Sequence record: PV173775 | Origin: Escherichia phage GEP001 | Strand: one strand, 5' to 3' | DNA length: 64,000 nucleotides | Part shown: positions 56,215-57,043 of the stretch, one piece after another | How the letters are laid out: each line of letters starts with the position of its first letter | Position numbering within the stretch: position 1 is the first letter of the stretch | The notes under the pieces: model-generated | Database searches by the model: none | Seen by the model: only the letters and a program-made list of their open reading frames with translations | Told to the model about the DNA's origin: nothing | Translations under genes and position numbers: made by a program

Positions 56215-56287
56215 TGGGAATTAGCCAAGTTGGTAAGGCACTGGATTTTGATTCCAGGATGCAAAGGTTCGAGTCCTTTATTCCCAG
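56215..56287 (+). tRNA. tRNA-Gln (anticodon UUG)
   Basis: Cloverleaf read by hand: acceptor TGGGAAT/ATTCCCA, anticodon stem CTGGA/TCCAG with loop TTTTGAT, T-loop TTCGAGT; CCA not encoded. Confidence 0.85.
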
Positions 56288-56288
56288 C

Positions 56289-56375
56289 GCGAGAATGGTC
56301 AAATTGGTAAAGGCACAGCACTTAAAATGCTGCGGAATGATTTCCTTGTGGGTTCGAGTCCCACTTCTCGCACCA
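56289..56375 (+). tRNA. tRNA-Leu (anticodon UAA), type II
   Basis: Acceptor GCGAGAA/TTCTCGC, anticodon loop CTTAAAA, long variable arm, T-loop TTCGAGT, encoded CCA; starts 1 nt after tRNA-Gln. Confidence 0.85.
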
Positions 56376-56380
56376 AATTT

Positions 56381-56454
56381 GCGGATATCGTATAATGGTA
56401 TTACCTCAGACTTCCAATCTGATGATGTGAGTTCGATTCTCATTATCCGCTCCA
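56381..56454 (+). tRNA. tRNA-Gly (anticodon UCC)
   Basis: Acceptor GCGGATA/TATCCGC, anticodon stem TCAGA/TCTGA with loop CTTCCAA, T-loop TTCGATT, CCA encoded. Confidence 0.85.
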
Positions 56455-56464
56455 ATTTAATTTA

Positions 56465-56538
56465 CTCCGTGTAGCTCAGTTTGGTAGAGCGTCTGCTTTG
56501 GGAGCAGAATGTCGTAGGTTCAAATCCTGCTACGGAGA
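56465..56538 (+). tRNA. tRNA-Pro (anticodon UGG)
   Basis: Acceptor CTCCGTG/TACGGAG, D arm GCTC...GAGC, anticodon loop TTTGGGA, T-loop TTCAAAT. Confidence 0.85.
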
Positions 56539-56540
56539 CT

Positions 56541-56630
56541 GGAGGCGTGGCAGAGTGGTTTAATGCACCGGTCTTGAAAACCGGCAGTCGCTCCGGCGAC
56601 TCATAGGTTCAAATCCTATCGCCTCCGCCA
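56541..56630 (+). tRNA. tRNA-Ser (anticodon UGA), type II
   Basis: Acceptor GGAGGCG/CGCCTCC, anticodon stem CCGGT/ACCGG with loop CTTGAAA, long variable arm, T-loop TTCAAAT, CCA. Confidence 0.85.
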
Positions 56631-56636
56631 GTTTTT

Positions 56637-56712
56637 GCTGATTTAGCTCAGTAGGTAGAGCACCTCACTTGTAATGAGGACGTCGGCGGTTCGATTCCGT
56701 CAATCAGCACCA
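56637..56712 (+). tRNA. tRNA-Thr (anticodon UGU)
   Basis: Acceptor GCTGATT/AATCAGC, anticodon stem CCTCA/TGAGG with loop CTTGTAA, T-loop TTCGATT, CCA. Confidence 0.85.
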
Positions 56713-56713
56713 A

Positions 56714-56788
56714 GGCCCTGTAGCTGGAAGGTTCAAGCAAGCGACTCATAATCGCCAGATGGTGGTTCAATTCCACCCAGGGCCACCA
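56714..56788 (+). tRNA. tRNA with anticodon CAU (T4 tRNA-Ile-type reading AUA after modification, or Met)
   Basis: Acceptor GGCCCTG/CAGGGCC, anticodon loop CTCATAA, T-loop TTCAATT, CCA; T4 tRNA-Ile carries a modified CAU-type anticodon. Confidence 0.75.
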
Positions 56789-56797
56789 AATTAATTT

Positions 56798-56884
56798 GGG
56801 GAGTTATCCCGTAGAGGTAGCGGTGTGGACTGTAAATTCATTGTCATTGCGACTCGGGTGGTTCGACTCCATCACTCCCCACCA
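56798..56884 (+). tRNA. tRNA-Tyr-like (anticodon GUA), type II, irregular D arm
   Basis: Acceptor GGGGAGT/ACTCCCC, anticodon stem GTGGA/TTCAT (two G-U pairs) with loop CTGTAAA, long variable arm, T arm GGTGG-TTCGACT-CCATC, CCA; D stem only 3 bp with 4 nt linker. Confidence 0.6.
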
Positions 56885-56888
56885 ATTT

Positions 56889-56963
56889 GGATGTGTAGCT
56901 CAATGGCAGAGCGATCGCCTGTTAAGCGATTGGTTATAGGTTCGAATCCTATCACGTCCGCCA
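56889..56963 (+). tRNA. tRNA-Asn (anticodon GUU)
   Basis: Acceptor GGATGTG/CACGTCC, D arm GCTC-AATGGCA-GAGC, anticodon stem ATCGC/GCGAT with loop CTGTTAA, T arm ATAGG-TTCGAAT-CCTAT, CCA. Confidence 0.8.
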
Positions 56964-56967
56964 AATC

Positions 56968-57043
56968 CGAGGCATAGCTCAGAAGGAAGAGCAAGGACCT
57001 TCTAAGTCCTAGGTCGTAGGTTCGATCCCTACTGCCTCGACCA
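56968..57043 (+). tRNA. tRNA-Arg (anticodon UCU)
   Basis: Acceptor CGAGGCA/TGCCTCG, D arm GCTC-AGAAGGAA-GAGC, anticodon stem AGGAC/GTCCT with loop CTTCTAA, T arm GTAGG-TTCGATC-CCTAC, CCA. Confidence 0.85.

Follow-up and report, generated by a model that had tools for sequence, protein, structure and literature searches.

In phage T4 (NC_000866), the transfer RNA (tRNA) genes are arranged in the order Gln-Leu-Gly-Pro-Ser-Thr-Ile followed by segB (666 bp) and then by Arg-rnaD-rnaC, and neither a tRNA-Tyr nor a tRNA-Asn gene is present. Phage T2L carries tRNA-Met, Tyr, Asn and Arg genes and has no segB (Brok-Volchanskaya et al. 2008, PMC2330249). The major SegB site, with a 27-bp recognition sequence, is located inside the tRNA-Asn of T2L, and co-infection of T4 with T2L leads to the exclusion of about 1250 bp of T2L DNA (Met, Tyr, Asn, Arg and two open reading frames, ORFs), which gives way to the T4 segB allele (PMC2330249). 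In phage T6 (AP018814), the order is Gln-Leu-Gly-Thr-Met-Tyr-segB-Arg, without Pro and Ser. Here we describe the tRNA array at positions 56215-57043 of a 64,000-nucleotide stretch of DNA from Escherichia phage GEP001 (sequence record PV173775), the whole of which is called the window below. This array is very probably the ordinary tRNA operon of a T-even phage (genus Tequatrovirus, lineage of IME340 and phage 132) in its segB-free, T2-type allele.

Gene content and T-even alleles of the array

A total of exactly ten tRNA genes were returned when ARAGORN was run on the whole window. All ten are on the plus strand and together they span 56215-57043. They are given below with their scores against the Rfam tRNA family RF00005, which was searched at its curated gathering threshold of 29 bits.

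56215-56288, plus strand: tRNA-Gln (UUG), 67.4 bits; CCA not encoded; abuts tRNA-Leu
56289-56375, plus strand: tRNA-Leu (UAA), class II, 59.3 bits; 87/87 identical to T4
56381-56454, plus strand: tRNA-Gly (UCC), 65.8 bits; 74/74 identical to T4
56465-56539, plus strand: tRNA-Pro (UGG), 66.3 bits; CCA not encoded; tRNA-Ser lies 1 nucleotide downstream
56541-56630, plus strand: tRNA-Ser (UGA), class II, 62.6 bits; CCA encoded, which is not the case in T4
56637-56712, plus strand: tRNA-Thr (UGU), 73.5 bits; 75/76 identical to T4
56714-56788, plus strand: CAU-anticodon tRNA, T2-type allele, 59.9 bits; labelled Met by ARAGORN
56798-56884, plus strand: tRNA-Tyr (GUA), phage-type class II, with a four-nucleotide connector (UAUC) between the acceptor and D stems; below the Rfam tRNA cut-off
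56889-56963, plus strand: tRNA-Asn (GUU), ordinary class I, 74.1 bits, the maximum of the array
56968-57043, plus strand: tRNA-Arg (UCU), T2-type allele, 68.1 bits

These calls agree exactly with the genes, anticodons and coordinates of the initial annotation, where the cloverleafs had been folded by hand, and both Tyr and Asn were called with the anticodons assigned there. The spacers are, in order, 0, 5, 10, 1, 6, 1, 9, 4 and 4 nucleotides; the near-zero spacing noted earlier is thus correct while its lower bound of 1 nucleotide is not, as Gln and Leu abut. The 3' CCA is encoded in eight of the ten genes, the two without it being Gln and Pro. RF00005 accepted nine genes at the gathering score (59-74 bits), with Tyr falling below the cut-off. 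Rfam matches to Plastid-ycf2, sX4 and YrlA were discounted, being sub-threshold and overlapping the tRNA genes.

The locus is already known and widely annotated. The array and its surroundings (1.4 kb), used as a BLAST query, were 98% identical to Enterobacteria phage vB_EcoM_IME340 and Escherichia phage 132, and this query matches 966 phage records, 272 of them at a query coverage of at least 80%. In phage 132 (genus Tequatrovirus), the same ten tRNAs are annotated in the same order and are followed by a hypothetical protein of 116 amino acids. The same array is annotated across hundreds of GenBank phage records, and exactly these ten tRNAs are listed for four other Tequatroviruses in a routine genome paper (PMC11993411). 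As expected of the T-even cluster, the array is positioned between the trna.2/trna.3 ORFs and rnaD/rnaC/e.8, and T4 shares 92-96% identity with it in both flanks as well as over the six and a quarter tRNA genes at the start of the array. The initial annotation had described T4 as having the same set without Tyr and Asn and with Arg set apart, which NC_000866 bears out. The novelty that this implied does not hold because a 2008 paper had already described the Met(CAU)-Tyr-Asn-Arg block in T2L (PMC2330249) and the ten-gene list is routine (PMC11993411); what sets the locus apart from T4 was accounted for in work of 2008 and 2026.

The T4 cluster occupies the same genomic position and its first seven genes are in the same order as those of the window. 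By BLAST, the homology to T4 has 95% identity over 56109-56733, breaks at about 56733, around 20 nucleotides inside the CAU tRNA gene, and is regained at 57410, where rnaD, rnaC and e.8 follow. The sequence in between (56734-57409) has no T4 counterpart; within it are the 3' part of the CAU tRNA, the Tyr, Asn and Arg genes and an ORF of 116 amino acids. T4 carries segB where the window has Tyr and Asn, it lacks the 116-amino-acid ORF, and its tRNA-Ile and tRNA-Arg are different alleles, with the CAU gene matching that of the window at 51 of 67 positions and Arg at 49 of 66. In the ORF list of the window, no segB ORF was found between the CAU tRNA and Arg.

In T2 (GenBank PV958097), the same CAU-Tyr-Asn-Arg block is present, followed by the same 116-amino-acid ORF and without segB. 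The identities to the window are 72/72 for the CAU tRNA, 87/87 for Tyr, 72/72 for Asn and 72/73 for Arg. T2 differs in having no tRNA-Thr, and an ORF of 133 amino acids is found between its Ser and CAU tRNA genes. The left half of the locus is therefore T4-like and the right half T2-like, since Thr is present in the window where T2 has this ORF.

T6 has a tRNA-Tyr in the same place after the CAU tRNA, with 86 of 87 nucleotides identical to the gene of the window. Unlike the window, its CAU and Arg alleles are of the T4 type (49/66 identity for Arg, as with T4). T6 matches the window through Tyr and three further nucleotides, diverges exactly at the would-be start of Asn and rejoins at rnaD, with no convincing T6 alignment being obtained over 56888-57409. 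In T6, segB comes directly after Tyr, in place of Asn, the T2-type Arg and the 116-amino-acid ORF. A motif search placed one further feature within the Asn gene:

56939-56949, no strand assigned: GGTTCGAATCC, core of the SegB recognition sequence; predicted site inside tRNA-Asn

Judged from its sequence, the locus is the segB-free homing-target allele of the T2L type, because segB is absent and its tRNA-Asn, which is identical to the one in the T2 record examined, contains the SegB core motif at 56939-56949. The T4 and T6 layouts would then be alternative alleles made by segB homing with different co-conversion tracts. With the predicted SegB target lying inside this tRNA-Asn, both layouts may best be read as products of homing, rather than Tyr and Asn as additions. 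A point that weighs against this is that the direction of the change is taken from homing biology, where the contrast with T4 could reflect either a loss in T4 or a gain of Tyr and Asn in this lineage. Indeed, close homologues of Tyr are found in unrelated phages (95% identity in rV5-like, 83-85% in Felix O1-like and T5-like phages), so the gene moves horizontally, and the CAU and Arg genes which flank Tyr-Asn differ from the T4 alleles, such that the whole block could be an imported cassette. A recent horizontal acquisition of Tyr and Asn by this lineage, with the eight-gene set of T4 as the ancestral state, is nevertheless decidedly unlikely. SegB cuts inside tRNA-Asn and the conversion of the T2L allele to that of T4 has been shown experimentally (PMC2330249), T6 retains Tyr with segB exactly at the start of Asn, which looks like an intermediate, and the allele containing Tyr is the commoner one, as at least 495 records have a copy that is at least 95% identical. 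We therefore favour segB homing into a T2-type allele as the origin of the T4 and T6 layouts.

Structure and distribution of the tRNA-Tyr

The identity set of tyrosyl-tRNA synthetase (TyrRS) consists of the GUA anticodon, A73, the G1-C72 pair and a long variable arm, and all four features were observed in the tRNA-Tyr of the window. Its anticodon loop (CUGUAAA) and variable-arm stem (GUC/GAC) are the same as those of the host tRNA-Tyr. The gene also conforms to the standard tRNA architecture in its 7-bp acceptor stem, its 5-bp anticodon stem with a 7-nucleotide loop (U33 and a purine at position 37), its 5-bp T stem and its TTCRA T loop, and the D loop has A14 and G18-G19. It departs from this architecture in the connector between the acceptor and D stems, which is four nucleotides long (UAUC) and not limited to positions 8 and 9; a canonical tRNA has two nucleotides between these stems (PMC7609411).

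Homologues were collected by an IMG/VR pattern scan and from GenBank loci, which gave 64 distinct tRNA-Tyr sequences whose ends were set by a script anchored on the T loop. The pattern has 14 specified bases and fixes the 3' strand of the D stem (GGTAGCRG); the independent evidence for the D stem is therefore that of its 5' strand and of the purine/pyrimidine covariation. The connector was found to be four nucleotides long, or five in 4 of the 64 homologues. When the cloverleaf was placed on the alignment, 95.8% of the structure cells were paired, with values of 96.7% for the acceptor stem, 99.7% for the anticodon stem and 100% for the T stem. Pairs with changes on both sides were observed in every stem and made up 20 of 24 pairs overall (acceptor 7/7, anticodon 4/5, variable arm 3/3 and T stem 4/5). 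None of 500 shuffles reached the observed values and no slid register came close to them.

The D stem forms in a register that is displaced by two nucleotides, where the three core pairs are present in 64/64 homologues, and a CG-to-UA double change was seen in four of these, including T5 and a T5-like Salmonella phage. Without any structure being supplied, RNAalifold returned the same cloverleaf, with the four-nucleotide connector, a CCGU/GCGG D stem and a 7-nucleotide D loop (AGAGGUA), in which the A, GG and A positions are all provided. The register drawn by ARAGORN, with a two-nucleotide connector and the pairs U.G, C-G, C.C and C-G, was rejected; only 57% of its D-stem cells pair and the C.C mismatch is present in all 64 sequences. 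The irregular D arm, noted in the initial annotation as a short stem with a 4-nucleotide linker, is therefore a conserved trait of the family and not a sign of decay.

The tRNA-Tyr of T5 belongs to the same phage tRNA-Tyr lineage, being about 85% identical to that of the window (BLAST), while T5 is from a different phage family and has a different tRNA neighbourhood (Tyr-Glu-Trp-Phe). The sequence that the two genes share without change starts at the last two bases of the anticodon stem and takes in the variable and T arms, and T5 has the same displaced D stem with a compensatory change from CCG/CGG to CUG/CAG. In T5, a U-A pair joins the fourth nucleotide of the connector to the one after the D stem; the corresponding nucleotides of the window are C and, opposite it, U.

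The best match of Tyr in the Rfam tRNA clan is tRNA-Sec at 29.9 bits, which is under the cut-off of 47 for that family. At a permissive E-value, clan competition displays only this match, and the RF00005 score of Tyr is below 29 bits. Members of the Tyr family score 29.9-39.1 bits or are missed, and most of the neighbouring tRNAs are well above 40 bits. The four-nucleotide connector explains these marginal scores, and with them the omission of the gene or its annotation as pseudo or OTHER.

A BLAST search with the 87-nucleotide Tyr gene matched 1336 phage records, with at least 95% identity in 495. The identities were 95% in rV5-like phages, 92% in Karamvirus, 89% in Moonvirus, 85% in Phapecoctavirus and Felix O1-like phages, 83-85% in T5-like phages, 80% in Klebsiella phages and 76-78% in Enterococcus phages. 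No chromosomal match to the gene was found in 5426 complete E. coli genomes. A host origin was considered and rejected; the host tRNA-Tyr is present in 5426/5426 genomes and matches the phage gene at only 59 positions of 85-87 nucleotides. On E. coli plasmids, 273 sites with a phage-type Tyr were observed at 88-93% identity in 269 of the 5426 genomes (for example, NZ_CP024264.1:16133-16219), and the sizes of these plasmids, around 70-120 kb, suggest phage-plasmids.

The lineage also extends beyond the phages of Enterobacteria. In Enterococcus phage AllMyExes (Herelleviridae, L012:801-882), a phage of a Gram-positive host, the tRNA-Tyr has the same connector (UAUU) and CCG/CGG D stem as the enterobacterial phage lineage, but its D loop carries AGUAG where the GG motif would be, its T loop is UGCGACU, and it is missed by Rfam. 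In four other phages, a tRNA-Asn (GUU) of 85-86 nucleotides was found near the phage-type Tyr, with a long paired variable arm (class II) and a G discriminator:

L006:1676-1760: class II-shaped tRNA-Asn of Moonvirus CF1
L007:1595-1680: class II-shaped tRNA-Asn of Phapecoctavirus ESCO13
L011:976-1060: class II-shaped tRNA-Asn of Klebsiella phage Roth66
L005:1868-1952: class II-shaped tRNA-Asn of Karamvirus KaAlpha

These genes pass Rfam with 49-62 bits. In bacterial systems, an Asn anticodon is not usually found on a class II body, which raises the question of the synthetase that charges them; the Asn of the window itself is class I.

It is possible, though doubtful, that the four-nucleotide connector is a conserved, selected hallmark of one tRNA-Tyr lineage moving between phages with no other relationship (T-even, T5-like, rV5-like, Felix O1-like, Phapecoctavirus, Klebsiella and Enterococcus phages) and found on E. 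coli plasmids but not on E. coli chromosomes. The altered core geometry might then serve in evading or titrating nucleases that cleave tRNA-Tyr, or in a phage-specific processing or modification, and it would also account for the under-calling of Tyr by standard tRNA models. We found no description of a four-nucleotide connector in phage tRNA-Tyr in the searchable literature, and a review of non-canonical tRNAs makes no mention of phages (PMC7609411).

Function of the tRNA-Tyr and codon supply

The tRNA-Tyr of T6 has been observed by northern blot and, when over-expressed, it rescues the phage from Septu (Chihara et al. 2026, PMC13096335). Deletion of the tRNA-rich region sensitises T6, whereas T4, which has no Tyr, cannot escape Septu, and over-expressed T6 tRNA-Tyr partly protects the tRNA-Tyr of the host (PMC13096335). 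Of the published findings on expression and anti-defence activity, these apply most directly to the Tyr of the window because the two genes are 86/87 identical and in the same place. For the T5 gene, the GenBank record states that the tRNA-Tyr converts to an effective amber suppressor upon anticodon change. By analogy with these relatives, the Tyr of the window is a conserved and very probably functional phage tRNA; the basis for this is its identity with the T2 and T6 genes, the conserved connector with its compensatory changes, the expression and activity seen in T6 and the suppressor annotation of T5.

Several observations weigh against a functional gene. The gene misses the gathering score of RF00005 (29 bits), though ARAGORN accepts it with a C.C mismatch in the D stem, and in several GenBank records the homologous gene is either not annotated or labelled tRNA-OTHER or pseudo. 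Its minimum-free-energy fold as a single sequence is not a cloverleaf but an alternative fold of -27.3 kcal/mol, unlike that of the host tRNA-Tyr, which does fold into a cloverleaf. In addition, the published account of the T6 tRNA-Tyr is of a relatively unstable molecule that Septu also cleaves, and the protection from Septu requires its over-expression or gene amplification (PMC13096335). The evidence for expression and anti-defence activity is also that published for the relatives in T6, T5 and SP15. The low Rfam score, the mismatch, the pseudo annotations, the fold and the instability could together suggest that Tyr is a decaying or non-functional remnant with only nine of the tRNAs being functional, a state which the initial annotation had allowed for. 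We consider this highly improbable since T2 has the identical gene, 495 phage records carry it at an identity of at least 95%, and the 64 homologues keep every stem through many compensatory changes, with the D stem of the true register pairing in 64/64. Furthermore, expression and activity against Septu have been reported for the T6 orthologue, effective suppression is annotated for the T5 homologue and all known TyrRS identity features are present. As a separate observation, the non-cloverleaf fold of Tyr fits the published remark on the relative instability of the T6 molecule.

Codon usage was compared between 62 long ORFs of the window (18,890 codons) and 49 annotated E. coli K-12 genes (14,640 codons), which are small samples with the phage ORFs being defined heuristically, and this tempers the comparison. 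The ten codons most enriched in the phage were AGA (8.9-fold), ATA (5.8-fold), TCA, GGA, ACA, AAT (3.4-fold), ACT, TTA, CTA and TAT (2.5-fold), and the tRNAs of the array read nine of these ten. Tyr and Asn, whose codons the initial annotation had singled out for this comparison, show the highest enrichment of all amino acids in the window relative to E. coli, at 1.81-fold and 1.71-fold. The array would therefore supply decoding for A/U-rich codons, namely AGA, AUA, UCA, GGA, ACA, AAU, UUA, UAU, CAA and CCA. This usage is consistent with the classical supply explanation, which offers a simple reason for Tyr and Asn to be retained.

Besides reading Tyr codons, the tRNA-Tyr may replenish or shield the tRNA-Tyr pool when it is cleaved by PtuAB-type defences such as Septu and retron-Eco7, as judged from its relatives. 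The PtuAB effector of retron-Eco7 cleaves host tRNA-Tyr in the variable loop (PMC11555353; PMC12673091). The tRNA-Tyr of T5 and SP15 protect against this retron and the variable loop of the phage tRNA is required (Azam et al. 2024, PMC11555353; PMC12673091). In T6, escape from Septu depended on SegB-driven amplification of tRNA-Tyr (PMC13096335). Such amplification could not start from the locus described here as its Tyr is not next to segB.

A stronger form of this proposal is that Tyr, and perhaps Asn, is kept mainly as an anti-defence substrate or decoy for the PtuAB of Septu and retron-Eco7, with little role in codon supply. The rescue of T6 by Tyr over-expression, the inability of T4 to escape without Tyr and the neutralisation of retron-Eco7 by T5 and SP15 Tyr through a variable loop in which the window is identical to T5 are all consistent with it, and the spread of the gene over unrelated phage families and plasmids, but no E. 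coli chromosome, suggests selection beyond codon bias. We nevertheless regard it as somewhat unlikely. Tyr and Asn are the most over-used amino acids relative to E. coli (UAU 2.5-fold, AAU 3.4-fold), Septu cleaves the T6 tRNA-Tyr too and the wild-type copy number gives no escape. In the literature examined, no defence system that targets tRNA-Asn was found, and the tRNA-Asn of SP15 did not rescue phages from PrrC. The codon-supply and anti-defence roles of Tyr are not mutually exclusive, and codon supply with an added protective role is the combination we retain here.

Neighbouring elements and comparison with known phages

The elements that flank the array on the same strand are as follows.

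56121-56145, plus strand: candidate T4-type middle (MotA-dependent) promoter, with TGCTTTA at 56121-56127, a gap of 12 nucleotides and TATTAT at 56140-56145; by-eye match
57060-57410, plus strand: ORF of 116 amino acids between Arg and rnaD; phrog_3355 (unknown function), E = 5e-54
57410-57520, plus strand: rnaD homologue (species 2 stable RNA); 94 of about 111 positions identical to T4 rnaD in a local alignment
57528-57666, plus strand: rnaC homologue (species 1 stable RNA); 137/139 identical to T4 rnaC
57717-57750, plus strand: terminator-like hairpin and T run, with a 10-bp stem of which 7 pairs are G-C, then TTTTTGGTATC; terminator scan

Co-transcription of the tRNA genes and their processing by host enzymes are known for T4. 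In the same manner, the ten co-oriented tRNA genes of the array are probably transcribed together with the 116-amino-acid ORF, rnaD and rnaC. Single tRNAs would then be released from the precursor by host enzymes, and Gln and Pro would receive their CCA from the host CCA-adding enzyme. The candidate promoter at 56121-56145 matches the MotA-box consensus of T4; it is conserved in the T4 alignment and overlaps the stop codon of the upstream ORF. Weighing against it as the promoter of the array, the match was made by eye, and a generic sigma-70 scan did not report 56121-56145 and found no convincing promoter directly upstream of the array, its sites not exceeding those in shuffled sequence. At the other end, the hairpin at 57717-57750 is, from its position, likely to be the end of the tRNA and stable-RNA transcription unit, while the terminator-like sites in this region do not exceed chance when compared with shuffled sequence.

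The 116-amino-acid ORF is annotated as a hypothetical protein in phage 132 and T2, and the block to which it belongs is missing in T4 and T6. In T4, rnaD follows Arg after one nucleotide, whereas in the window this ORF is found between them. A PHROGs search of the three flanking ORFs gave only families of unknown function. Relative to T4, rnaD was observed to be far less conserved than the adjacent rnaC and its middle part is rearranged.

Differences from T4 were also observed within the tRNA genes that are shared. The tRNA-Gln differs at eight positions in the anticodon arm (56241-56257), where six of the eight are compensatory changes in the anticodon stem and loop positions 32 and 38 are U/U as against C/C in T4. 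The tRNA-Pro differs at ten positions, which are clustered in the anticodon and T stems (56491-56535). These arm swaps in Gln and Pro resemble the anticodon-arm variation that has been proposed to evade tRNA-targeting nucleases. The body of tRNA-Ser is identical to T4 (87/87) but its 3' end is CCGCCA and not CCGTAA (56625-56630). The CAU tRNA likewise encodes CCA (56783-56788), unlike the T4 Ile gene. Since CCA is encoded in both Ser and the CAU tRNA, this phage should rely less than T4 on the host CCA-adding enzyme.

The CAU tRNA is labelled Met by ARAGORN and by most GenBank records, with only the different allele of T4 being annotated as Ile, and the T2L paper also calls it Met (PMC2330249). 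Its acceptor stem (GGCCCUG/CAGGGCC) gives the pairs C4-G69 and C5-G68. These same two acceptor pairs are the determinants of TilS. The E. coli matches to this gene (76-87% identity) are all annotated as tRNA-Ile among those listed, and AUA is 5.8-fold enriched in the window while AUG stands at 0.85-fold. The CAU tRNA is thus most likely a tRNA-Ile2, which would depend on lysidine, read AUA and be functionally equivalent to the tRNA-Ile of T4 as a different allele. An elongator tRNA-Met was considered and is less likely in view of the tRNA-Ile matches and the enrichment of AUA.

For genome annotation, the locus is of little importance as it is a standard Tequatrovirus tRNA operon. The only element for which we found no earlier description is the conserved four-nucleotide connector of Tyr together with its effect on the sensitivity of tRNA finders, which is a modest curiosity. 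Because of this connector, phage-type Tyr genes are at or below the thresholds of covariance models. As Tyr is missing or marked as pseudo in a fraction of records, the counts of phage tRNAs and of phages resistant to PtuAB are under-estimated.

Compared with the systems described so far, the locus joins three known ideas, which are the matching of phage tRNAs to codon usage, the homing of SegB in tRNA genes and the use of tRNA-Tyr as a counter-defence. For SegB, tRNA genes are landing sites, and it reshuffles the cluster among alleles of the T2, T4 and T6 types, of which the array described here represents the T2 type.

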